From Microgenomates group bacterium GW2011_GWF2_47_9 (GTDB lineage Bacteria > Patescibacteriota > Microgenomatia > UBA1400 > UBA12108): DNA of 35,498 nt. The notes beneath the pieces were generated by a model. It saw only the letters and a program-made list of their open reading frames with translations. It was not told where the DNA came from and did no database searches. The stretch covers positions 1 to 35,498 of the forward strand of contig LCPA01000002.1 of NCBI GenBank assembly GCA_001003385.1, given 5' to 3'. The position numbers were made by a program, and so were the translations under genes. Below are positions 2,180 to 35,498 of this stretch, in pieces (position 1 is the first letter of the stretch; each line of letters opens with the position of its first letter).

Positions 2180-2206
2180 TTATCACTCTGTTCGTGCGAG
2201 TGCTAT
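2180..2206 (-). promoter_or_regulatory. CIRCE operator (HrcA binding site) in the groES leader
   Basis: TTATCACTC-N9-GAGTGCTAT against the CIRCE consensus TTAGCACTC-N9-GAGTGCTAA. The 9-nt spacer is exact and the inverted repeat is otherwise perfect. It overlaps the -10 box of the groES promoter. Confidence 0.8.
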
Positions 2207-2233
2207 ATTAGCAATGGCTTCCCGGAGTGTCAA
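2205..2233 (-). promoter_or_regulatory. Sigma-70 type promoter of groES-groEL
   Basis: On the minus strand: TTGACA (2228-2233), 17-nt spacer, TAATAT (2205-2210). This gives a leader of about 70 nt containing CIRCE and the Shine-Dalgarno sequence. Confidence 0.7.
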
Positions 2234-2243
2234 CTAGGTCAAA

Positions 2244-3065
2244 CTATACAAGAGGTGGGGAGGAGACTGTTAGAACTTCGTTTTCTGGTAGGCGAAAAAG
2301 AGGTTCGCCAAGACGTTTTTGATCTAGATAATGAGCAATAAAGCCAACACTTCGAGAAAGGACAAAAACAGCATTAAAGAATTCTGTTTCGAGTAGGCCT
2401 GAAATCTCGGCTGAGCCGAGATGCTCTTCTTCTGATAAAAGATCTAGAAGTACGGCGGCGATACAACCGTCGACATTGAGAATTAGATTGGGTTTTTTGG
2501 CGGTGGTTTGAGAGGAGACCTGACGAGCAAAGTCTAGGTAGGGATGGGCGATATCCTCGACAACTTTTGTGAGGATTTCTACGCGGGGGTCTGGCAAAGT
2601 AACGGAGTATTTGCGATGTCCAATACCGGGGATATAAGCTTTGCGTTTGGCGTAATCTTCAACAACATCAACCGGAGAAGTGCCAGCCTCGACAGAATGA
2701 AACCAAACTGAGGCCGCGCCGTTAATTGCTCCACCGAAGCGCGGGCCGATTGTTAGGAGTCCTGAAACCAGGGATGAGACCAAGTCTTTGCCGGCACGAG
2801 CAGTAATAATCGTGTTGACGGCGCCTGAAACGTAGGGGCCATGATCGACAAGAAGACGTAGGGTGAGGTCGAGAGCTTTTTCGAGGCGCGCTGACTTTAA
2901 TGGCCGACCTAACCAAAGCGAACCAGCGAGCCAAGCTAGACTTTGAGTGGAAGCTGTGGTTGTAAGGTCGGAGCCTAGAATCGTGGCGATGCCATTGACA
3001 TCACCACTAATTGTAGAGGTAAGTAGGGAGGGTTTGCGATCGTTAAGTTCACTTGCCTGTTTCAT
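2244..3065 (-). CDS. ccl: Citrate-synthase-like / citryl-CoA-lyase module of ATP-citrate lyase, as a stand-alone 273-aa protein
   Basis: Near-colinear with the C-terminal domain of eukaryotic ACLY/AclA as I recall it: LLVDHGPYVSGAVNTIITARAGKDLVSSLVSGLLTIGPRFGG, IPGIGHRKYS, KKPNLILNVDG, FVLSRSVGFIAHYLDQKRL. The ATG is at 3063-3065. Confidence 0.8.
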   Translation of the reverse strand: MKQASELNDRKPSLLTSTISGDVNGIATILGSDLTTTASTQSLAWLAGSLWLGRPLKSARLEKALDLTLRLLVDHGPYVSGAVNTIITARAGKDLVSSLVSGLLTIGPRFGGAINGAASVWFHSVEAGTSPVDVVEDYAKRKAYIPGIGHRKYSVTLPDPRVEILTKVVEDIAHPYLDFARQVSSQTTAKKPNLILNVDGCIAAVLLDLLSEEEHLGSAEISGLLETEFFNAVFVLSRSVGFIAHYLDQKRLGEPLFRLPENEVLTVSSPPLV

Positions 3066-3083
3066 AGACCAAGGATAGCATAT

Positions 3084-4031
3084 TTAAAGCTGACCAACTT
3101 CAGCAACAAACGCACTAAAAGAGTCGGTAACGGTAAAGCCAGCCTCGCGAAGTGCTTTTCTTTTGGACAAAGCTGAGTCTTTGACACTTGCGGCTTTGGC
3201 TTTGGCATGGCCAAATTGAGGAGATTCGGGGAAAAGGTCGGCGACGGTGCCTGCAATGTGAGCGATAACTTTTTTAGTAAATTTGCCCTCCTCTTTGAGC
3301 TTGACTAGTTCGTACTCGTCTAGCCCCCCGAGCTCGCCGTAGTAGAGTACTGCGGTTGTCGCCGGATCGGCTTCTGCAAGTAAAAAGGCTTGGGAAGGAG
3401 AGAGAATCGGAAAGCGATCTCCACCAAAGGAGAGAGCAAATGAAAGGTGGTGACCAGCAAGAGCGGCGACACTAATGAGCTCATTGGTCATCCCGCCTGA
3501 AGCAGATAAGACGGCAATGTGACCTGGCTTGATGATGCCTGATTCTTCGACTTGAAGGGGGGTGATTCCGCCAATTGGGCCTAACTTGAGAGCGGTGGGG
3601 ACAAGCAGACCAACAGAGGCCGGACCGAGGATTAGGGGAGAGTAGCGTGATCCCTCTACGGTGCGCAGGATTGAGTGGGCGTGAAGTTCGGGAACATTCT
3701 CAGCAAAAAGGACACCACCAGCGTAGTTAAAATCGAGAAGTTCGAGAGTAGAGGGCAAAGTACGACGACCAGAGCTAATGTTGAAGAACCAATTTGTAGA
3801 ATCGCTTGGAAGTGGTACGCTTTTTACAGAAATAAAGGTGGGAAACAAAACTTCCTCTTTACCAAAGAAGAATTTGGTATACCCTCTCTTGCCAGTCACA
3901 ACGGCAATAAGGCTAGGCTGGCTTTTCCCACTCAAATAATCAAAATCTAGTATTGATTGAATGAGAGCGGGGTGGTTACCAATGACGACAATTTTGTTCT
4001 TTCTGGCCCGGATTTGTTCGATGTTAATCAT
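3084..4031 (-). CDS. aclA: ATP-citrate lyase alpha-type CoA-binding/CoA-ligase module with phosphohistidine loop, 315 aa
   Basis: ILDFDY motif, GPASVG, SASGGMTNEL, GGDRFP, and the loop QFGHAKAKA followed by KALREAGFTV. This matches ACLY QFGHAGA...KNQALKEAGVFV from memory. The start ATG overlaps the aclB stop (ATGA at 4028-4031). Confidence 0.8.
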   Translation of the reverse strand: MINIEQIRARKNKIVVIGNHPALIQSILDFDYLSGKSQPSLIAVVTGKRGYTKFFFGKEEVLFPTFISVKSVPLPSDSTNWFFNISSGRRTLPSTLELLDFNYAGGVLFAENVPELHAHSILRTVEGSRYSPLILGPASVGLLVPTALKLGPIGGITPLQVEESGIIKPGHIAVLSASGGMTNELISVAALAGHHLSFALSFGGDRFPILSPSQAFLLAEADPATTAVLYYGELGGLDEYELVKLKEEGKFTKKVIAHIAGTVADLFPESPQFGHAKAKAASVKDSALSKRKALREAGFTVTDSFSAFVAEVGQL

Positions 4032-5215
4032 GATTCAATATATTTGATAGCTTGACTAATAACGTTGGTTAAAACAACATCTCGACCAGACACTTCCCCA
4101 AGTAGGGAAGATTTGGCAAGGTAGGCTTTGATCATTGTAAGTCCTTTTTGTTCGTTGGGACCACCACGGCGAACAAAGACTTTGACGCCCAAACGAACAA
4201 GTTCTTTCTCGTGCTCTTTGAGAGCCCGGATAATACCGGAGAAGGTTTTGGCAACGTCCGTGAAATTGGCAACGCCCCCGGCAATTATAAGAACTTTGCG
4301 GGGAGCTGTAGAGCGAATTAGTTCGGTAAGGACAAGAGAGGTATAGGCGTAAGTATCATCGTCACTCGGGGCGCCAGAATACTCACCGTAGTTGCCAAGC
4401 TCTTTGCCATAACCAAGATCAGTAGCCTCGTCAGCCAAGACGAGCGAGGCTCCTCCACCTGACAAGAGTAGCCAAATTGAGCCGTTTTGGTTTAGCGAGC
4501 GAAATTTGAGAGAGGCGGGGGTAGTGGCGTCAAGAAGGGCAATTTGCTGTTCGACTGGCTGATTTCTGCGTTCGGTAACGGGAGTGAGCGAAATGGGGAA
4601 GCCGGGGAGCGCGAGGCCTGCACTATCTATTTCGCCTGCCGCGTCGAGGAAAATGAGTTTATCTCCAATGATTAAGACTGGATTACATTCGAGAAAGACG
4701 AGATGATGCTCTATCAGCGCGTTAATTAGCTTGTCGAGGATAGGATGAAGCATAGGAGGGAGCCAAGAGGGAAAAATGTATTTCCCCTCACGACTTGTTA
4801 GGAGAGCCGATCTAACGCTATCCCAAGTTGATTCGACAGAGACACCACCCTTCTCACCCCAAGAAAGATGCCATCCCTCTCTCACTAATTCGAGGGCGAG
4901 GTATTTTTCATCTTGTTCTTGATGAGGAAGATATCCTTCGACAATGAAGTTGGACCAGCCAAGCTTGCGCCAAGCTTGGGCGGCCTCGTAAACAGAGGCG
5001 ACTGTAAGATTGAGCTTGACCAAGCCCACCACCCCACGCTTTTTGACTCCCTGGTCAACCTTGATGACGAGAGAGTCTAAGTTGTTGGAACGAGCGAAGG
5101 AGGTGAGTTCGAGAAGGGTGGAGTCGGTGGACAGACGAAAAACGCTTGCTTGGGAAGGAAAGATTTTCGCAAGGATTGCTTTAACGTCTGACTCTAAAAG
5201 TTTAACCCTAGCCAT
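4028..5215 (-). CDS. aclB: ATP-citrate lyase beta-type ATP-grasp/citrate-binding subunit, 395 aa
   Basis: Strong ACLY N-terminal-like blocks: KVDQGVKKRG..GLVKLNLT, FLECNPV, SGGGASLVLADEATDLGYGKELGNYGEYSGAPSDDDTYAY, IAGGVANFTDVAKTFSGIIRAL, VFVRRGGPNEQKGL. Confidence 0.85.
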   Translation of the reverse strand: MARVKLLESDVKAILAKIFPSQASVFRLSTDSTLLELTSFARSNNLDSLVIKVDQGVKKRGVVGLVKLNLTVASVYEAAQAWRKLGWSNFIVEGYLPHQEQDEKYLALELVREGWHLSWGEKGGVSVESTWDSVRSALLTSREGKYIFPSWLPPMLHPILDKLINALIEHHLVFLECNPVLIIGDKLIFLDAAGEIDSAGLALPGFPISLTPVTERRNQPVEQQIALLDATTPASLKFRSLNQNGSIWLLLSGGGASLVLADEATDLGYGKELGNYGEYSGAPSDDDTYAYTSLVLTELIRSTAPRKVLIIAGGVANFTDVAKTFSGIIRALKEHEKELVRLGVKVFVRRGGPNEQKGLTMIKAYLAKSSLLGEVSGRDVVLTNVISQAIKYIES

Positions 5216-5833: not shown

Positions 5834-6598
5834 TTAGTTTTCGGGGGGTAATGGTGATTCGGAGGGAGTAGCTTCAACTTTTTTAGTAAAACGCTCGGAG
5901 AGGCGGGCGATGAGCGACTGGATAATCCGAATAGAGTTGTAGATTGTGGAAAATACCAGGGAAGTAATAATAAAGACTTTCTTGCCGGCAGGCATGGCCA
6001 AAAAAACTAGATAAGAACCAACGGGTAAAACAAATTGGAGCATGGTAACGTCGCGACGAGAGACTGGGAAGGGAGAGCGAATGGCTAAGAGGAGTTCGAC
6101 GATAAAGATCATGGCAGACTGGATGAGGTTGAGGGTGGCGTTGGTATGGCTTAGGTCATATTTTCCTAGAAATAGGAGATTGACGCTATTAATCTGAGGC
6201 ATAAAGGGATAGAGCAAATGAAAATCCTCGCCTTCGAGGCCGGTTGTAAAAATGCGGTACAGCATGACAATGATAATGAGCTGAATGATGAGGTTGGCTG
6301 ATGTTGCAAGAACCGTCCTTTTGTTGGCGCGCATGACTTTGCGCACCTCTTGTTTGGCGAGAATGGGATCATGAGAGTAGCGAGCTTTAAGTTCTTCGAC
6401 GACTCCGGCGATTTTGCGCTTTTCTTCCTCTTTCCTTTCACTTGCGATGGTGAGGGGGAAGGTAAACAGTCGAACGACGAGGGAAAAGATGATTACTGCA
6501 ATACCCATATCCAGAAGTTCTGGAGAAAGGCGACCGAGAAGCCAATAGATTCCAACTAAAATATTGAAGAAGGGCTGATAGATGTAAGTTTCAAACAT
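5834..6598 (-). CDS. YidC/Oxa1-family membrane insertase, divergent second paralog, 254 aa
   Basis: The N-terminus IYQPFFNILVGIYWLL and the TM1 arginine (VVRLFTFPL) parallel the canonical YidC at 20927-21691 (VYQPILNTLIWLY, LVRGLLIPFTLP), and it has several TM helices. I trimmed the track start (6625, non-ATG) to the ATG at 6598, which removes the overlap with the upstream gene. Confidence 0.65.
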   Translation of the reverse strand: MFETYIYQPFFNILVGIYWLLGRLSPELLDMGIAVIIFSLVVRLFTFPLTIASERKEEEKRKIAGVVEELKARYSHDPILAKQEVRKVMRANKRTVLATSANLIIQLIIIVMLYRIFTTGLEGEDFHLLYPFMPQINSVNLLFLGKYDLSHTNATLNLIQSAMIFIVELLLAIRSPFPVSRRDVTMLQFVLPVGSYLVFLAMPAGKKVFIITSLVFSTIYNSIRIIQSLIARLSERFTKKVEATPSESPLPPEN

Positions 6599-6604
6599 AG
6601 AGGC

Positions 6605-6610
6605 ATTATA
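6605..6610 (-). promoter_or_regulatory. -10 box TATAAT, 6 nt upstream of the YidC-paralog ATG (candidate leaderless start)
   Basis: The minus strand reads TATAAT-gcctct-ATG. The TAA stop of the upstream gene (6606-6608) lies inside the hexamer. No Shine-Dalgarno sequence. Confidence 0.5.
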
Positions 6611-7073
6611 CCTTGCTAGACACAATTTGGGTGGTAGAGACTGAGGGATTCCAGGTATGAACGACCACTAGTTCACAGCCATATTTTTTGCAGAGAAGAC
6701 GTTTGTTGTCTAAAAATGAAGTGTGGCTGGAGACGGCGTAATAATGAGGGCGGACGGAGGAGAGGAGAGAGTTGTAGGCGGCCTGATTATCAAAGTCGTC
6801 GGGGAGAAGAATCACATATTGAGCATATTCCCTTACTTTTTGAGCGCGGACTACTTGGATCTCAATCGGCCTTCCCTCCCCCTTCTGCGCCTTTGCCCGA
6901 GCGTCGCTTTCTACGCCAACAATAAGAGTGTCGCCTGCGCGGGCGGCTTTTTTCAAAAAATTGATGTGCTCGATATGGAGGAGATCAAAAAAACCGGTGG
7001 CTAAGACCAACCTTCGAGAGCGAGAATGGAGAGAATGGCTAATGCTTTTGATGGTGTCGATTGTGTAGAACAT
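6606..7073 (-). CDS. Cytidylyltransferase-like (HxGH-type nucleotidyltransferase fold) protein, 155 aa
   Basis: LATGFFDLLHIEHINFLKKAA resembles the GxFDxxHxGH signature of the TagD/RfaE-II/FAD-synthetase-type nucleotidyltransferases. The size fits a single domain. Confidence 0.55.
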   Translation of the reverse strand: MFYTIDTIKSISHSLHSRSRRLVLATGFFDLLHIEHINFLKKAARAGDTLIVGVESDARAKAQKGEGRPIEIQVVRAQKVREYAQYVILLPDDFDNQAAYNSLLSSVRPHYYAVSSHTSFLDNKRLLCKKYGCELVVVHTWNPSVSTTQIVSSKV

Positions 7074-20570: not shown

Positions 20571-20955
20571 CCTGGCTCAAGAGGACATGGACTTGACGAC
20601 GTTCGGTTGAGGAAAGAGGGGGCATGGCATGTGCTGACCCCGTCTCGAGGACTTTGGCGGAAATTCTGGCAACCATCTCTTGTAATGTTTTGAGGCGATT
20701 CTCGCGATAACCTCCTACATCAAAGAGGATGTGCCGAGAAAGATTGCTTTTATTAACCATGAGAGAGATGAGAAGTTGGATCGAGTCTAGGGTGGAGGCA
20801 TAGCGGCCAATGTAGATGCCAGCGTCCTCGGCCGGAAGTGCGACCGAGATCGTAAGTAGCTCACCATCATCTTCAAAAGTGATTAGCTCTGTATTGAGGT
20901 TAAGATAGTTTAGGAATTGGATGATATTATCTTGTAGCTGTTTTTCGATTGACAT
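20500..20955 (-). CDS. jag: Jag/KhpB-type RNA-binding protein (KH + R3H), 151 aa
   Basis: C-terminal R3H motif (STERRQVHVLL) and the conserved position downstream of yidC. ATG at 20955 with a GGGAGG Shine-Dalgarno sequence (20960-20965) chosen over the track start at 20991. Confidence 0.75.
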   Translation of the reverse strand: MSIEKQLQDNIIQFLNYLNLNTELITFEDDGELLTISVALPAEDAGIYIGRYASTLDSIQLLISLMVNKSNLSRHILFDVGGYRENRLKTLQEMVARISAKVLETGSAHAMPPLSSTERRQVHVLLSQDETFTTYSEGEGGERRLFISKKN

Positions 20956-21691
20956 GATTCCTCCCAATTTTGATACCAAGTTTGCGTGCATATTTTACTA
21001 GCCCCCCTGGGCCTGAAATGACTAGTTGTTGGACGAGAGAAAAGGCAGTAGTGATTACCCAGTACAAGGAAAGGCCTGACGGAAATTGCAGGGCGAATAC
21101 CACGGTCATAATGGGCATGAGGAAAACCATTTGTTGTTGCATAGAGGTGGCCATTTCGGCAACATCTTCTTTTTGGGCTTTAGTGCCTGGCCGCTTCTCT
21201 GGTTCGTTTTCAACAGCGGGAAGAATTGCCATTGAAGTAAAGAGCTGGAGAATGCCGGCGAGAACAGGGAGAATGTAGGTTCCGTCTTTTTCTTTGAGGT
21301 TCCAAAAGAGAAAGTTGGTGTTGGTTAATACTGATTCGGCGCCGTTTAGAGAATTCATAAAAACCTGATATAGCGCGATAAGCACAATAAATTGAGCGAT
21401 ATATGGGAGACAGCCACCGGCGGGGTTCAGTTTGTGGGTCTTATAAAACTCTAGCTGTTTGGTTTGAAAAACTTTGGGATCATGGTCGTATTTTTTTTTG
21501 AGGGCGTCAAGCTGGGGTTTGAGGGCACTCATTTTTTTGGCCGACTTTAGGCTCGGCAAAGTAAAGGGAATAAGAAGGCCTCTAACCAGAAGAGTAAGAA
21601 TGATTGTCGCGAAGCCGAGATTATTGCCGGTGATCTGATAAAGCCAGATTAGGGTATTTAGAATGGGTTGATAGACAAGTGTGTGATACAT
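20927..21691 (-). CDS. yidC: Membrane protein insertase YidC (short Gram-positive/CPR type), 254 aa
   Basis: VYQPILN, LLVRGLLIPFTLP, HKLNPAGGCLPYIAQFIVLIALY, LSLYWVITTAFSLVQQ. It occupies the canonical position in rpmH-rnpA-yidD-yidC-jag. Confidence 0.9.
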   Translation of the reverse strand: MYHTLVYQPILNTLIWLYQITGNNLGFATIILTLLVRGLLIPFTLPSLKSAKKMSALKPQLDALKKKYDHDPKVFQTKQLEFYKTHKLNPAGGCLPYIAQFIVLIALYQVFMNSLNGAESVLTNTNFLFWNLKEKDGTYILPVLAGILQLFTSMAILPAVENEPEKRPGTKAQKEDVAEMATSMQQQMVFLMPIMTVVFALQFPSGLSLYWVITTAFSLVQQLVISGPGGLVKYARKLGIKIGRNHVNRKTATR

Positions 21692-22493: not shown

Positions 22494-23849
22494 ATGGACA
22501 ACCAGGATTTATGGAAGGCGGTATTGAGCGAGTTGGAGCTGTCGATTTCGGGAGTAAATTACTCTACTTGGATCAAACCTTTAAATTTGATTGCGATTGA
22601 GGACAAGGGAGAGGGAAAAAGCTTAACCATAATCCAATGCCCCTCGCCATACCACAAACACATGGTGGAACAGAGATACCATGCTCAGATACAGAAAAGC
22701 TTGGAGAGAATTACGGAACAAAAAACTGAGGTGGTCTTTGAAGTGGGGAAAAGGAAGTCAAGCCCGGAAGCAGAGTTGTTTACTCCCCTTTTTTCCCAGA
22801 CCGGAGTAGGGAATACAAAAAGTGGCGCACATAATTTGAACCCAAGACTAACGTTTGAGACATATGTGGTTGGCTCTAGCAATAACTTTGCACATGCGGC
22901 GGCACAAGGGGTGGTGAAGAGTCCCGGCAAAAAATATAATCCTCTCTTTATATACGGAGGGGTGGGACTTGGGAAAACACACCTCATGCATGCTGTGGGA
23001 CACGAGTTATTTAAATTACATCCAGATTGGAATATTCTCTATATTTCTGCTGAGACTTTTGCTAATGATCTTATTTCTAGCTTGCAGAGCAAGAAGACAA
23101 CAACATTTAAAAAAAGGTATCGATCCTGCGATCTTTTAATGGTTGATGATATCCAGTTTATTTCGGGGAAAGAGTTTACTCAAGAGGAGTTTTTTCATAC
23201 TTTTAATGAGTTGCATATGAACGAAAGACAGATAATTTTATCCTCTGATCGACCACCACAGGAAATGGCGAAAATCGAAGAGCGGTTGTCCTCTAGGTTT
23301 ATGGGTGGACTTACCGTCGATATCCAACCTCCAGATTTTGAGATGCGAGTCGCAATCTTGACCCAAAAGGCCAAGGAAATGGGTCTTTCAATCCCACCGG
23401 AATCAATTTCCTTAGTCGCTGAGAAGACGGCGACCAATATAAGGGAGCTTGAGGGGGTGTTCCGAAAGGTTGTGGCTGTTGCTGATCAGAGAGGCGGGGA
23501 AATTAGTGGAGAGCTTGTGAGAGAGTTTTTCGGAGTAGAGCAGGAAAGAAGAACCCAACGGATAAGACCAAGTCTAGTCATCAATAAAACAGCACAGTAT
23601 TTTGAATACAAGACGGGAGACCTAACGGGAAAGAGCCGAAAAGCTCCCATCACGAATGCAAGGCATATAGCGATGTATTTGATAAAAACTGAGCTTGACA
23701 TACCATACGAGCAGATCGGAGAACTTTTCGGGGGGAGGGACCACACGACAGCCATGCACGGAGTTCTAAAAGTGACAGAAGGAATCAAAACGGAAGCAGA
23801 GGTTGCCAAACACATCGCAGACATTAAGCACATGGTTTTTAGTCAATAG
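22494..23849 (+). CDS. dnaA: Chromosomal replication initiator DnaA, 451 aa
   Basis: Walker A GGVGLGKTHLMHA, Walker B LLMVDDIQF, and the C-terminal DNA-binding helix (KSRKAPITNARHIAMYL...GGRDHTTAMHG). GAGGGG Shine-Dalgarno sequence upstream. Confidence 0.97.
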   Translation: MDNQDLWKAVLSELELSISGVNYSTWIKPLNLIAIEDKGEGKSLTIIQCPSPYHKHMVEQRYHAQIQKSLERITEQKTEVVFEVGKRKSSPEAELFTPLFSQTGVGNTKSGAHNLNPRLTFETYVVGSSNNFAHAAAQGVVKSPGKKYNPLFIYGGVGLGKTHLMHAVGHELFKLHPDWNILYISAETFANDLISSLQSKKTTTFKKRYRSCDLLMVDDIQFISGKEFTQEEFFHTFNELHMNERQIILSSDRPPQEMAKIEERLSSRFMGGLTVDIQPPDFEMRVAILTQKAKEMGLSIPPESISLVAEKTATNIRELEGVFRKVVAVADQRGGEISGELVREFFGVEQERRTQRIRPSLVINKTAQYFEYKTGDLTGKSRKAPITNARHIAMYLIKTELDIPYEQIGELFGGRDHTTAMHGVLKVTEGIKTEAEVAKHIADIKHMVFSQ

Positions 23850-24126
23850 GGGTTGCCTTTATCCACTACTAGTGTTGATAACTATGGGGAAAATAGACGG
23901 GGATCGAATAATTATTTGTGGATAACAAGACAAAAAATGGTTATACACATAAAGGGAAAAGTTATCCACCAAGTTATCAACTAAGAAACGTGGGTTATAT
24001 GCTAAGTTTTCTACCGGTCTACCCAGAGAATAATTCACTAATCCACCATATATACTAATACTGCTACTAAAGGAAACTTAAATAAATAATTATGTATAAT
24101 GTGCACAGTCAGAAAAAGGAGAAGAA
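23850..24126. other. Chromosomal replication origin (oriC) between dnaA and dnaN
   Basis: DnaA boxes: TTATCCACT (23859-23867), perfect TGTGGATAA (23917-23925), TTATACACA (23941-23949), TTATCCACC (23962-23970) and TAATCCACC (24039-24047). These are followed by a 3-nt periodic CTA/ATA run (24052-24069), an AT-rich stretch (24070-24100), and the dnaN -10 box TATAAT (24095-24100). Confidence 0.8.
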
Positions 24127-25224
24127 ATGAAAATCGAAGTATTGCAGGAAGAACTTATTAAGGGAATAGGGGTTGTGGGGAGGGTTGTCTCGAACCGAGC
24201 TCAACTGGCAGTACTTGGGAATATCTTGATTGAAGCACAAAAGACTGGACTTAGACTTTCGGGGACCGATCTTCAGATAGGGATGAGTATTGGTTTGCCA
24301 GCGAAAGTAAGTGAGACTGGAAGAATCACAGTTCCTGCAAAGGTTTTACAAGAATTTGTCGGGTCGTTAGCGCCGGGAAGGCTTACCTTGGAACTAAAGC
24401 AAGATACGCTAATTGTTGAGGGGGGGAGTTATCGAGGGAAGTTTCAGACGATATCTGCGGAAGAATTCCCAGCTATTCCAGTTTTGCCTGATAATAAGGC
24501 AAAAATCATAGTGAGACAGAGCGAGTTTGCCGAGATGTCGACAAAGGTGATATTTGCCGCCGCAAAGGATAGTTTGAGGCCAGTATTGACGGGAATTTTG
24601 CTTGAACTGTCTAAGACTAGTTTGAGGATGGTCGCTACAGATGGATTTCGATTGTCAGTTGGCAAAATTAAGGCACAGGGAGCGGACTCTTTGAGGAGTG
24701 TTTTGATACCGATGCAGGCAATTGCGGAAGTAGCCAGATTTGAAGGGGAAGAGGAGTTACAAATAGTGAGCGTAGAGGAATCTAATCAAGTGATTTTCCA
24801 GGCGGGGGAGAGCCTGTTGGTAAGTCAGGTAATTGACGGGAATTATCCGGATTATAATAAAATAATTCCAAAGGAGTCTAAGAGTGAGGTTGTGGTTAAC
24901 CGGGAGGAGCTTTTGCAGGCTGTAAGGGTGGCTCATATTTTTGCCAGGGAAAATTCGAACATGATGAAATGGGACGTTAATGAGAAGGAGATAGTAATTA
25001 TTGCAGAATCGCCAGAAAGAGGCGATTCGGAAGCGAGAGTCCCTGCCAAAATTGACGGAGAGGGAGGGAAGATTATTTTTAATGCGAAGTTTCTTCTTGA
25101 TTTTTTGAGTGTAGCAAAGGGGAGCGAGATAACATTTGGGATGGGGGAGCCACTTGACGCCGGGGTATTTCGTTCGACCGGCGACGAGGGACTTTTGTAT
25201 ATCGTAATGCCAATTAATGCCTAG
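24127..25224 (+). CDS. dnaN: DNA polymerase III beta sliding clamp, 365 aa
   Basis: Typical DnaN length, position after dnaA, and sequence (LRPVLTGILLE...LRMVATDGFRLS...VIDGNYPDYNKIIP). AAGGAG Shine-Dalgarno sequence upstream. Confidence 0.95.
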   Translation: MKIEVLQEELIKGIGVVGRVVSNRAQLAVLGNILIEAQKTGLRLSGTDLQIGMSIGLPAKVSETGRITVPAKVLQEFVGSLAPGRLTLELKQDTLIVEGGSYRGKFQTISAEEFPAIPVLPDNKAKIIVRQSEFAEMSTKVIFAAAKDSLRPVLTGILLELSKTSLRMVATDGFRLSVGKIKAQGADSLRSVLIPMQAIAEVARFEGEEELQIVSVEESNQVIFQAGESLLVSQVIDGNYPDYNKIIPKESKSEVVVNREELLQAVRVAHIFARENSNMMKWDVNEKEIVIIAESPERGDSEARVPAKIDGEGGKIIFNAKFLLDFLSVAKGSEITFGMGEPLDAGVFRSTGDEGLLYIVMPINA

Positions 25225-32589: not shown

Positions 32590-35498
32590 ATGGGAAACAC
32601 TGAACGTCAACCTAAGCCGGGTAGTGGAGAAGTGGGGGAGAATGCAGGGGCACAGAGAACGCCTACAATTGATAAGTCGGTGGGGGGAGTAATCGATTTT
32701 TTAAGACAGATGAAACTGTTGGTTTTGATGAGGAATCAAGATCCAAATTCGGGTAATTTTGAGAAACTTCGCGAAGTTGAAGAGGGGTTACAGGATAAAG
32801 ATCCTAAAGTTCGTACGAAGTCCCAGACGTTGGCGGATCAATTAATTCAGAATTTTGATTTAGTTTCGGGAGAGGCGGGGCGAGCGAGTTTACAAAGAGT
32901 GGTTGAGACGGCGTATCCTGATGCGGGGAAGAGGCCGGGACAAGCACTTGGTTTGGCAAGCGAGATAGATAAAAAGATGGCCGTGATAACCAGAAAATTT
33001 GAACAGGGGCAAGCAGTAGAGGCGAAGGAGAGCGAGGAGATATTTGAGAGGCTTAGCAAGTTTAGAGATGAGGTTGGGTTTAGAGGGATGACGCAAGAGG
33101 GGATGCAGATTTATGAGGATACGATACTGACGGTAGTCGCGGCAAGACAAGTAGGGAAGAATGTTGAGAATCCCTTGGTTTATGAATCTCCGCTTGAAGC
33201 GAAAAAAGAATTTTTTGCGGAGGGGTCGTCTCCTCAAGCTGATGATAAGAGACTGAAAATAAGGAGGGCTAAGCCAGAGCAAAAACCACAACTAGAAGAA
33301 AAGCTGGAGAGAATGAAAAAGAACGTAAGAGAAGTGGTAATTGAGAAAAAACGGAAAATGGGGGGGCAGGAGGCAATTGGAGCGCTTGAGGACATTTCTG
33401 ACCTTAAAGCAAGACTAAGGAGCCTTGTTGGCGATCAGCATAAGGAGACGCTTGAAACTTTGCAGACACTATCGGCGGCGGAGGCACACTTTAGAAGAAT
33501 ATTAAGCGATAATATTGAGGCGAAGCTTGGGGGTGGCGCGGGAGTAGAGCAGGGATCCATATATGCCGCACTTGGGGATGTTTTACACGAGGCAAGAGGA
33601 GGAAAGTATGCGGGAGGAAAGGCAAGATATCATTTCGAGGATAAGTTTGACAAGGTAGTAGAGACGGTTGAGCGGCGAGCTAAGAGTTATGAGGCACAGA
33701 TGTCTTCTCGCTTCGGGAGAGCGGCGACACTAGGTAGCGATGAGTATAAGGGGATGTCACAAGTAGAGCGGATGATTGCAACAGCGCAGGCTCAGCAGGA
33801 AGCCGCGTTTCATGAGAAGGTGAACGATATATATCCTGTACTAAGTGAGATGGGGATTGATCCAACATTTCCGGACGGGACTTTCTTTACCAAATTACAG
33901 AAACAGACAGTTGAGGAGAGGATACAGACGATTGACGAGGTGATAAGACAAGGGAGGGAGCGAGGAGTATCTGAGTCGAAGTTGACGATGGGGGCGAAGT
34001 TTTTACACTCGATTGCACGGGCAGAAAAAGACAAAAATGGGGTAATGGTGGATTTTCTCGATGTAAAAGAAAGGTTACGAGGGTATGTAAAGAAGCACCA
34101 GTACGGGCGATATATTCGGGAGATGAAGTCTTATGTAAGTAGAGTTGGATTGCGCGAATCGTCGGCTGACTTTCAGTTTGCAATTATGTTACGCGACGCG
34201 AAAGATGTGATATCGATTTTGGAGACCGATGTGGCGGAGGAGTTTGACGCCTGGCAAGGTTCGTTGTTTATTCCTTCGTTTAAGTCGGTGGATCCGGAGA
34301 CTTTCCGCTCGATGTTTGAGAGAGTGTGGAATGCAAGTAATCTTGACCATGTGTTAAACCCGGCTTACGCAAATGCGGCCGGGATGCTTGTGGAGATGCC
34401 TGACGGGACGAAGAAAATGATGTCGACTGCGGTGTTTTACCAACTGCTTCAACGAGGAGATAACGCAACCAGATTTTTGAATGCGGCGGTTGATACGGTT
34501 GACAGTACTTCATTCCGGATTTGGATTGATTACCTTTATGGTAAGGGAGCGACGTGGGAAGGAGACTTGGCGACGGGGAGAGTGGTTGACGCAAATGGGA
34601 GAGAACTCGCAAAAATGAATAGCTTGATTAAGGTGCAGGGTTTTGATGTAAAAAGTAAAAAGCTAGACGGGGATGACCAGGATACGTTTACGCTAGGAGA
34701 GCTTTTGGAACAAGGACAATGGATGCATCGATATGCAGAGAACTTTTTTATGTATTCGGGGGAGGCGGGTAAGCATATGCGTCACTATCCGAAGGAGATG
34801 ATGGAGAACGCGAACAAGTGGGTGTTTGCGCAAGACCAGATGTTTGAAGGCTACTCAGGACACTATGGCAAGTATGCTCAGCCATTTTGGCAGATCGCAA
34901 AACTGGGGCATTTACTTCGTGAAATTAGGGGTTACAAAGACACGGGTATATTTCAGGAGGCAATGGTTTTGGAGCTAAGAGGAGCGGGGATCGAGAGCGA
35001 CCGTGCCATAGCTTTTTCGAAAATGTGGACGGACAAATTGAAACAAAAAATCACGGTAGAGGGGAAGACGTTTGATGTGGGATTGTTGTCAATTGAGGAA
35101 ATAAGGTTGATCGGAAACGAGTGGGGGGGAGCGGAAGAGGCGTGGCTACATGCGAAAGATTATTTAACGGCACACAATATGCCAGAGGGAATGATTAAGG
35201 ACCAGGCATATATAAGGAGGGTGTTGGGGAAAAAGAACCGAGGAGAGAAGATGAGTGAGGAGGAGGAAAACTGGGCGAAACAGGCGGAGGAATTTTTTGC
35301 GTTATGCAAAAGCTTGAAGTGGTCAGATGTGAAGAAAAAGGATTATGGAGGATTGTCGGAGCGAGAGCTTGCCAGCTCGATGACGGAGAGAGAGCTAGCG
35401 GTTTTTGCAAAGCGGAAGAATACAATTTTTGGCGGGGAGTGGAAGCCGCGGAATATGACTGAGTTTGTGCAAGGATTTGAGTATGCGGCGGTAATGGA
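32590..35498 (+). CDS. Large uncharacterised protein, at least 969 aa, 3' end beyond the window (absent from the supplied ORF track)
   Basis: I translated this frame codon by codon from the ATG at 32590 to 35498 and found no in-frame stop. An in-frame TGA at 32569-32571 closes the frame upstream. No + strand ORF is listed in this 2.9 kb, and the six listed minus-strand ORFs there are low-complexity shadows. The product is charged, helical-looking and lacks a TM helix, and I recognise no domain. Confidence 0.8.
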   Translation, partial: MGNTERQPKPGSGEVGENAGAQRTPTIDKSVGGVIDFLRQMKLLVLMRNQDPNSGNFEKLREVEEGLQDKDPKVRTKSQTLADQLIQNFDLVSGEAGRASLQRVVETAYPDAGKRPGQALGLASEIDKKMAVITRKFEQGQAVEAKESEEIFERLSKFRDEVGFRGMTQEGMQIYEDTILTVVAARQVGKNVENPLVYESPLEAKKEFFAEGSSPQADDKRLKIRRAKPEQKPQLEEKLERMKKNVREVVIEKKRKMGGQEAIGALEDISDLKARLRSLVGDQHKETLETLQTLSAAEAHFRRILSDNIEAKLGGGAGVEQGSIYAALGDVLHEARGGKYAGGKARYHFEDKFDKVVETVERRAKSYEAQMSSRFGRAATLGSDEYKGMSQVERMIATAQAQQEAAFHEKVNDIYPVLSEMGIDPTFPDGTFFTKLQKQTVEERIQTIDEVIRQGRERGVSESKLTMGAKFLHSIARAEKDKNGVMVDFLDVKERLRGYVKKHQYGRYIREMKSYVSRVGLRESSADFQFAIMLRDAKDVISILETDVAEEFDAWQGSLFIPSFKSVDPETFRSMFERVWNASNLDHVLNPAYANAAGMLVEMPDGTKKMMSTAVFYQLLQRGDNATRFLNAAVDTVDSTSFRIWIDYLYGKGATWEGDLATGRVVDANGRELAKMNSLIKVQGFDVKSKKLDGDDQDTFTLGELLEQGQWMHRYAENFFMYSGEAGKHMRHYPKEMMENANKWVFAQDQMFEGYSGHYGKYAQPFWQIAKLGHLLREIRGYKDTGIFQEAMVLELRGAGIESDRAIAFSKMWTDKLKQKITVEGKTFDVGLLSIEEIRLIGNEWGGAEEAWLHAKDYLTAHNMPEGMIKDQAYIRRVLGKKNRGEKMSEEEENWAKQAEEFFALCKSLKWSDVKKKDYGGLSERELASSMTERELAVFAKRKNTIFGGEWKPRNMTEFVQGFEYAAVM

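Follow-up and report, generated by a model that had tools for sequence, protein, structure and literature searches.

Among described enzymes, the ACLY-A/B ATP-citrate lyase (ACL) of Methanosaeta (Methanothrix) concilii/soehngenii (PDB 6hxi and 6znw) and human ACLY (PDB 6hxh, 6o0h and 6poe) are the best matches to all three parts of the system reported here. Chlorobium limicola AclB/AclA (PDB 6hxj) is clearly more distant, and the citryl-CoA synthetase (CCS; CcsA/CcsB) and citryl-CoA lyase (CCL; Ccl) of Hydrogenobacter thermophilus (PDB 6hxq and 6hxp) show remote similarity only. Here we analyzed a 35,498-nt stretch of DNA (hereafter, the window) from the Candidate Phyla Radiation (CPR) organism Microgenomates group bacterium GW2011_GWF2_47_9 (contig LCPA01000002.1), in which three adjoining minus-strand genes, here called A, B and C, match the three parts of ACL in a colinear arrangement. 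Our comparison with related loci makes it likely that these genes encode a functional ACLY-type ACL in which the AclA subunit was cut in two, at the linker between its ligase and lyase parts, by a single derived fission.

ACL is common in this CPR group and is hardly mentioned in the literature. The aclAB genes are reported to be enriched in metagenome-assembled genomes of Saccharimonadia (PMC12577380), and a 2022 preprint (10.1101/2022.10.25.513756) notes that sequences from CPR and DPANN organisms, wrongly labelled as succinyl-CoA synthetase (SCS) or citrate synthase (CS), group with CCS or CCL. A metabolic survey of the CPR (PMC7304191) does not mention citrate, the tricarboxylic acid (TCA) cycle or acetyl-CoA, and our full-text literature searches found no description of a three-gene CPR ACL.

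Three adjoining genes match the parts of ACLY

Gene A (4028..5215, minus strand; an open reading frame (ORF) of 395 aa) corresponds to the AclB-type beta subunit, with an ATP-grasp and a citrate-binding domain. Gene B (3084..4031, minus strand) encodes a stand-alone protein of 315 aa that matches the N-terminal, CCS-alpha- or SCS-alpha-like half of AclA, carrying the CoA-binding and phosphohistidine domains, and gene C (2244..3065, minus strand) encodes the citryl-CoA-lyase or citrate-synthase-homology (CSH) module of AclA as a stand-alone protein of 273 aa. The operon is tightly packed. A starts 6 nt past the stop codon of an upstream SPFH/Band-7 gene, and A and B share an ATGA overlap (4028..4031, minus strand), formed by the B start ATG at 4031..4029 and the A stop TGA at 4030..4028, which recurs in many related loci. 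B ends with a TAA at 3084..3086 and is followed by an 18-nt spacer, ATATGCTATCCTTGGTCT (3066..3083, minus strand), before C.

Profile searches assigned A to Pfam Citrate_bind (7.2e-57; 192 bits against a cut-off of 26.8 bits) and to the ATP-grasp domain of ATP-citrate synthase (Pfam Citrate_synth_N; 6.4e-22), the latter with 78.5 bits, slightly under the 83-bit cut-off. B matched Pfam Ligase_CoA above the cut-off (2.9e-11); Pfam reported no CoA_binding domain in B, yet residues 9-307 of B align to residues 494-792 of human ACLY. C matched the C-terminal half of Pfam Citrate_synt (2.3e-21; profile positions 163-353 of 357).

In the search against PDB sequences, A aligned to human ACLY residues 54-419 with an E-value of 5e-57, and its E-values against the human and Methanosaeta ACLY structures ranged from 2e-52 to 5e-57. 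B matched human ACLY 494-792 (2e-44) and Methanosaeta ACLY-B 14-309 (2e-43), and C matched the CCL module of human ACLY (3e-54) and Methanosaeta ACLY-B 349-607 (4e-54). The corresponding values for A, B and C were 6e-34, 5e-25 and 7e-32 against Chlorobium AclB/AclA, with a further value of 5e-33 for C against Chlorobium, and 7e-11, 2e-14 and 3e-15 against Hydrogenobacter CCS/CCL, so that the CCS/CCL matches are 30-45 orders of magnitude weaker than the ACLY matches. The NCBIfam/TIGRFAM models for SucC and SucD did not reach their cut-offs with A (28.7 bits versus 375) or with B (81-86 bits versus 336-353). The NCBIfam citryl-CoA lyase models scored 34-66 bits against cut-offs of 193-409, and all NCBIfam citrate synthase models were far under their cut-offs, C covering only the C-terminal part of the citrate synthase profile.

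A thus combines an ATP-grasp domain with the ACL-specific citrate-binding domain and its citrate ligands, B carries the ligase domain with the equivalents of human H760 and E599 on a GHAKA rather than a canonical GHAGA loop, and C is a lyase module with the equivalents of H975 and D1026. What departs from the known ACL architecture, in the window and in 17 related loci, is that the lyase module is not covalently joined to the alpha part. On these profile and alignment results, A, B and C are of the ACLY type and not of the CCS/CCL, SCS or citrate synthase type.

A preliminary description of the locus had reported three genes colinear with the parts of ACLY, with these lengths, the ATGA overlap and the 18-nt gap, all of which are present in the sequence. 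It had also placed the second junction at the ACLY linker. This agrees with the position of RKPSLLTSTISG (C residues 10-21), which aligns after the linker, from residue 835 of human ACLY and from residue 349 of Methanosaeta ACLY-B. Its preference for an ACLY-like over a CCS/CCL-like enzyme is borne out by the E-values and the sub-threshold NCBIfam scores given above, and a placement with SucCD or citrate synthase, which it had considered as well, does not fit the low scores of the SCS and CS models.

The ligase and lyase parts are separate in many related loci

Relatives were collected by scanning one genome per species, which turned them up in as many as 330 genomes, and the best 80 loci were analyzed. 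The A, B and C parts are adjacent and in the same order in 78 of these 80 loci, the remaining two being cut by contig ends. B and C are separate genes in 17 of the 78 (species-level genomes), and in the other 61 they are fused into an AclA-type protein of about 595 aa; Levybacteria is the commonest name among the fused loci. A protein search with B retrieved more than 120 metagenome clusters with 59-68% identity, all of them stand-alone proteins of 300-369 aa. An exhaustive search with C recovered three length classes: stand-alone proteins of about 270 aa, an AclA type of about 590-600 aa and a single-chain ACLY type of about 1000-1160 aa.

The junctions between the separate B and C genes are varied. 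Six split loci have a 4-nt spacer with a +1 frame shift, one (L014) has an ATGA overlap, four have spacers of at least 100 nt, and L003 has one of about 300 nt. In L006, an ORF of 309 aa and of unknown function (L006:6972-7901) lies between B and C and shares an ATGA overlap with the B stop. The break sits within the linker of fused CPR AclA, an unconserved segment of 15-25 residues. The comparison of these loci indicates that the split is natural and conserved, and not a frameshift or an error, as the preliminary description had proposed from the window's own junction; the proposal now extends to 17 species-level genomes with differing junctions and a break in the variable linker.

Two further loci were considered as candidates for an independent fission. 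One of them, P0141 (L081), was rejected, as it proved to be a fused gene interrupted within the ligase domain by a premature stop. In this aclA-type gene from outside the CPR clade (L081:1574-3355), the in-frame stop follows directly after QFGHAGARANS, and the 123 nt of apparently intergenic DNA encode the conserved continuation, which points to a pseudogene or an assembly error. Its lyase part reads LILKVDG in place of LILNVDG. The second candidate, P0137, was set aside, as it lies on a 1.6-kb fragment.

The split forms group within a clade of fused enzymes

In a tree of A, B and C together (972 columns, with 17 single-chain sequences as outgroups), the CPR clade received bootstrap support of 100% and the split clade 99%, and the fused CPR forms appeared as one clade with 79%. 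In a tree of B and C that included fused non-CPR representatives, all sequences with the GHAK loop, P0127 among them, formed a clade with 100% support, and the split and fused CPR forms without P0127 formed a clade with 89%. The tree of B only placed the split clade inside the fused forms. P0127, at the base of the GHAK clade, is a fused protein of 591 aa that carries the GHAKAKA loop and has a histidine at the position of human H900.

The next relatives outward are also fused and have the canonical GHAG. Among them (P0138 and P0139) are a protein of Saccharibacteria and, from the DPANN archaea (Ca. Norongarragalinales), a protein named 'ATP citrate synthase'; an ACLY-type ACL may thus be shared among small-genome symbionts of both domains.

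The loop of SCS reads GHAGA. Compared with the GHAG of SCS and of the other sampled ACLs, GHAK is the derived state, and the root therefore cannot fall between the split and the fused CPR forms without a reversal. The nested position of the split clade, the basal position of the fused P0127 and the fused state of the outside neighbours together suggest that aclA was split once, secondarily, at the linker between its domains. Our model suggests that the ancestor carried an ordinary two-gene aclB-aclA operon, of the kind still present in Levybacteria and other CPR bacteria, and that fission would have occurred once, in a CPR Microgenomates lineage whose named members are Woesebacteria and Roizmanbacteria.

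The preliminary description had read the three-gene form as an architecture intermediate between CCS plus CCL and fused ACL, and this idea is not supported by the trees, in which the split clade is nested in a CPR clade with fused AclA, with fused P0127 at its base and fused relatives outside. Its further claim, that such an enzyme would be unexpected in a CPR genome, was only half right: this ACL type occurs in up to 330 species-level genomes, and all the named ones are CPR/Patescibacteria.

Catalytic residues are kept and two motif changes mark the clade

Residue conservation was assessed by counting residues in each alignment column for 17 split sequences, 54 fused CPR sequences and an outgroup of 17. 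The equivalents of human G309, N346, F347, T348, R379, E599, H760, H975 and D1026, as well as the R1065 region, are kept in both the split and the fused CPR forms. In the window, the citrate-binding positions of A are G281, N317, F318, T319 and R350, which correspond to human G309, N346, F347, T348 and R379. H275 of B, in the loop QFGHAKAKA, aligns to the human phosphohistidine H760. E111 of B (codon 3699..3701, minus strand), the equivalent of human E599 (aligned FAENVPE / IAEGIPE), is invariant both in the alignment of homologues and in the column counts; the role of E599 in human ACLY has been described (PMC10115795). H150 and D199 of C correspond to human H975 and D1026 and are conserved in all split and fused CPR forms.

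Among the positions checked, only two changes are clade-wide. One lies next to the phosphohistidine, where human G762 is replaced by lysine, giving GHAKA in place of GHAGA (codons H275-A276-K277 of B, 3201..3209, minus strand). QFGHAKA is present in 120 of 120 B homologues and in all split and fused CPR loci, and the loop of the single-chain outgroup is mostly GHAG, with few GHSG. The other is V83 of C (SGAVNT), at the position of human H900 (SGAHNT), which is V, L, M or I across the CPR clade except in the basal P0127, where it is His. Many ACLs from outside the CPR, eukaryote-type ACLYs included, vary here too (Q, T, M or I). In human ACLY, H900 is described as helping to hold a 'non-productive' CoA and not as a catalytic base (PMC10115795).

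Within the split clade, C has a mean pairwise identity of 0.66, ahead of B with 0.59 and A with 0.52. As C is the most conserved module, a decaying relic is unlikely. The preliminary description had flagged both GHAKAKA and SGAVNT, which are indeed present, and had raised the loss of catalytic residues in a non-enzymatic relic; the catalytic and binding positions checked are retained, and the two deviations are invariant signatures of the clade. By their distribution in the alignments, GHAKA and SGAVNT are conserved CPR clade signatures and not decay.

Proposed mechanism and alternative explanations

Judged from its residues, the ACL of the window is probably active, converting citrate, ATP and CoA to acetyl-CoA, oxaloacetate, ADP and Pi. 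By homology, the ATP-grasp domain of A would phosphorylate H275 of B, and citrate bound on A would be converted to citryl-phosphate and then to citryl-CoA on A/B. Citryl-CoA would then be cleaved with the participation of C, in which the H975 and D1026 equivalents are kept. We hypothesize that C forms a tetrameric core onto which A and B dock non-covalently to give an A4B4C4 particle, perhaps via the conserved N-terminal R-x-x-S-L-F-T-S-T-I-S segment of C. Because the three genes stand together in every complete locus and C shares this N-terminal segment with the fused ACLYs, C probably assembles with A and B, possibly as A4B4C4, rather than acting as a free enzyme.

Two of the alternatives we weighed concern the split itself. 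If the TAA between B and C were a sequencing error, a recent nonsense mutation or a stop that is read through, the true product in the window genome would be a fused AclA. B and C do share a reading frame here, a single TAA plus six sense codons being all that parts them; the hypothetical readthrough product of 595 aa equals the median length of fused CPR AclA, and a genuine pseudo-split of the same kind exists elsewhere, in L081. Against this, the C-terminus of B and the N-terminus of C, which has its own ATG, are the usual termini of the family. All 12 of the 12 closest relatives by B identity with a readable C are split, and most of them have frames, overlaps or long spacers that preclude readthrough. 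The L081 stop falls inside a conserved domain and its 'intergenic' DNA is still coding, whereas the spacer of the window lies in the unconserved part of the linker. We therefore regard an artefact, a pseudogene or readthrough as barely credible. Alternatively, the three-gene form could be a surviving stage between CCS plus CCL and fused AclA that predates the fusion. Three polypeptides with a separate lyase formally resemble CCS-beta, CCS-alpha and CCL, and a tree of C only, rooted on CCL-like sequences, places the CPR clade near the base, with weakly supported deep nodes. However, the A, B and C sequences are of the ACLY type and distant from Hydrogenobacter CCS/CCL; the split and fused CPR forms have in common the derived GHAK loop and the change of H900 to V; fused P0127 is basal to the GHAK clade (with the 100% and 89% supports given above); and the nearest relatives outside the clade are fused. 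An ancestral intermediate would also demand that the fused CPR lineage had independently rejoined the two parts at that same linker, and we consider such an intermediate very improbable.

The other alternatives accept the derived split and differ in what the enzyme does. A and B might together make up a free citryl-CoA synthetase that passes diffusible citryl-CoA to a likewise free lyase, C; no A4B4C4 particle would then form, and in function the pathway would have gone back to the route of the Hydrogenobacter type. Spacers of at least 100 nt or an inserted gene set C apart from B in L006, L003, L033, L046, L061 and L079, which suggests loose coupling; the equivalents of H975 and D1026 are present in C, which is also the best conserved of the modules, and the stand-alone CCL of Hydrogenobacter offers a precedent. 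But in all 78 complete loci A, B and C lie side by side in an unchanged order, the retained RxxSLFTSTIS segment that C has in common with fused ACLYs is consistent with an intact contact between C and the ligase part, and work on human ACLY places the CoA at the ASH-CSH interface (PMC10115795), which would need a complex. A dissociated system of this kind is, in our judgement, unlikely. It is also conceivable that the glycine-to-lysine change and the replacement of H900 by a hydrophobic residue mark an enzyme with another substrate, or one running in the reverse, ATP-yielding direction, both substitutions being essentially invariant across hundreds of CPR sequences. Reverse citrate formation (acetyl-CoA, oxaloacetate, ADP and Pi giving citrate and ATP) has been reported for Desulfobacter; CPR organisms are fermentative and have few ATP sources, and no reductive TCA genes lie near the ACL operon, all of which would suit such a role. 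All citrate-binding and other catalytic residues are conserved, however, and the H900 position varies in bona fide eukaryote-type ACLYs too, and we hold neofunctionalization to be quite unlikely. A further variant is that fission made a channelled ACL dissociable, the detached CSH subunit working in trans, whether by cleaving citryl-CoA as a free lyase or by serving as an allosteric or scaffold partner whose dose is set separately, with the lysine and the loss of H900 marking a mechanistically distinct and possibly ATP-yielding ACL. We put this forward tentatively, as a somewhat unlikely scenario.

Our preferred reading, a functional ACLY-type ACL that arose by a single fission of AclA, has several points against it. 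The trees are neighbour-joining trees on corrected p-distances with bootstrap, not maximum-likelihood trees. The tree of C only is weak (68% for the CPR clade and 40% for the split clade), and the fused CPR forms are either sister to the split clade or paraphyletic around it, depending on the tree. In the window, the break between B and C is a single in-frame TAA, and readthrough to a fused protein is possible in this organism. The enzyme's mechanism, regulation or substrate could be affected by the invariant glycine-to-lysine change and by the lost equivalent of H900. Our literature searches found no characterized member of the CPR ACL clade, and no citrate transporter, TCA enzyme or acetyl-CoA consumer linked to the operon was found in the window or in the 80 related loci.

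Genomic context and physiological role

The context of the window is chromosomal and, as the preliminary description had supposed, CPR-like. The groES and groEL genes lie directly downstream of the ACL operon, and the window also encodes the SPFH protein, two YidC proteins, LeuRS, L25, DUF4012 and VanW. The inventory of the window contains no TCA, transporter or acetyl-CoA genes. To survey the neighbours more widely, ORFs of the 80 loci were clustered and the recurrent ones were scanned with Pfam. The recurrent neighbours are housekeeping genes, MurB being found in 27 loci and EF-G in 25, together with GreA, NUDIX and peptidase genes; no transporter, TCA, Pta/Ack or PFOR gene is among them. 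The sole metabolic hint is a class I/II aminotransferase near the ACL genes in 10 of 80 loci (for example, L074:2735-3937), a possible oxaloacetate sink through aspartate synthesis. We infer that the enzyme, in an organism lacking a TCA cycle, is likely to turn imported citrate into a supply of acetyl-CoA and oxaloacetate. The preliminary description had suggested that scavenged citrate might be used in this way.

Other features of the window were observed in passing. The 115-nt spacer between C and groES contains a CIRCE-like inverted repeat (2180-2206) with 2 mismatches to TTAGCACTC-N9-GAGTGCTAA, for which 0.02 occurrences are expected by chance. The repeat overlaps a TTGACA-17-TAATAT promoter (2233..2205, minus strand). 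From these motifs, groES-groEL appears to be under its own HrcA-type heat-shock control directly after the ACL operon. The two YidC/60KD_IMP paralogues lie within 15 kb of each other (5834-6625 and 20927-21691), and of the two, the copy beside the ACL operon has diverged further (64 versus 156 bits). The dnaA and dnaN genes (22494-25224) are located about 17 kb from the ACL operon, and the window probably spans the replication origin region; the cumulative GC skew climbs steadily from one end of the window to the other and does not switch at dnaA. Further along, a minus-strand cluster (25221-32551) encodes a TraG/VirB4-like ATPase, a PrgI-family protein with CarboxypepD_reg, a Big_5 protein and a CHAP-domain protein of 996 aa, and by its domains looks like a type-IV-secretion or conjugation-like apparatus. 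A single plus-strand open frame of at least 983 aa (32548-35498) runs past the right end of the window. Scans of the window for tRNA genes and with Rfam gave no matches.

Implications

The locus is a real, conserved and probably active ACLY-type ACL with an architecture that is not described in the literature we searched, and it is most likely the product of a derived fission and not an evolutionary intermediate. Since a three-piece layout like that of CCS/CCL can arise secondarily, architecture alone cannot polarize the shift from CCS/CCL to ACL.

Whether the CSH module of ACLY is catalytic or only allosteric or structural is disputed (PMC10115795). The CPR enzyme provides a natural split-enzyme test of this question, as its CSH module stands on a chain of its own, shows the highest conservation among the three proteins and has not lost the equivalents of H975 and D1026; three small proteins are also convenient to express and to mix. 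Should fission have made the ACL dissociable, as in the tentative scenario above, the lineage would itself be a natural experiment on the catalytic versus the allosteric role of the module.

CPR bacteria are thought to lack a TCA cycle, and citrate use barely features in reconstructions of their metabolism. An ACL that is common in one CPR group, with near relatives in Saccharibacteria and a DPANN archaeon, suggests that citrate may act as a currency exchanged by symbiont and host in CPR and DPANN organisms. In public records, B and C of the split form go by the names 'hypothetical', 'succinyl-CoA synthetase alpha subunit', 'citrate synthase' and 'ATP citrate (pro-S)-lyase'. With such names, pathway callers could overlook ACL in CPR genomes or list TCA-cycle steps there that are spurious.

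Comparison with known systems

The three proteins of the window are like Methanosaeta and human ACLY in their domain order, in the citrate-binding, E599, H760, H975 and D1026 residues, and in the RKPxxFxxxIS motif at the start of the lyase module. Unlike Methanosaeta ACLY-B (631 aa) and human ACLY, they have the alpha-ligase half and the lyase module on separate polypeptides. They also differ from both in having GHAKA for GHAGA and Val for H900, and there is no long regulatory linker of the animal type.

Further counterparts are the two-gene aclB/aclA systems of CPR bacteria (Levybacteria and others; for example, L015-L080, P0122 and P0127), which belong to the same clade (100%), have the same gene order and GHAK loop and, with the exception of P0127, have H900 replaced. 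In these two-gene systems, B and C form one protein of about 595 aa with a linker of 15-25 residues, whereas the window and 17 loci have a stop codon, a spacer and a new start instead.

With Chlorobium limicola AclB/AclA the system shares the reaction family and the domain set; the Chlorobium enzyme differs in its two subunits and in its host, an autotroph with a full reductive TCA cycle. The Hydrogenobacter thermophilus CcsA/CcsB and Ccl system is alike in having three polypeptides with the lyase separate. Given the remote sequence similarity, this resemblance would be convergent, reached in the CPR lineage through fission of an ACL, and the split state would not be shared by ancestry.

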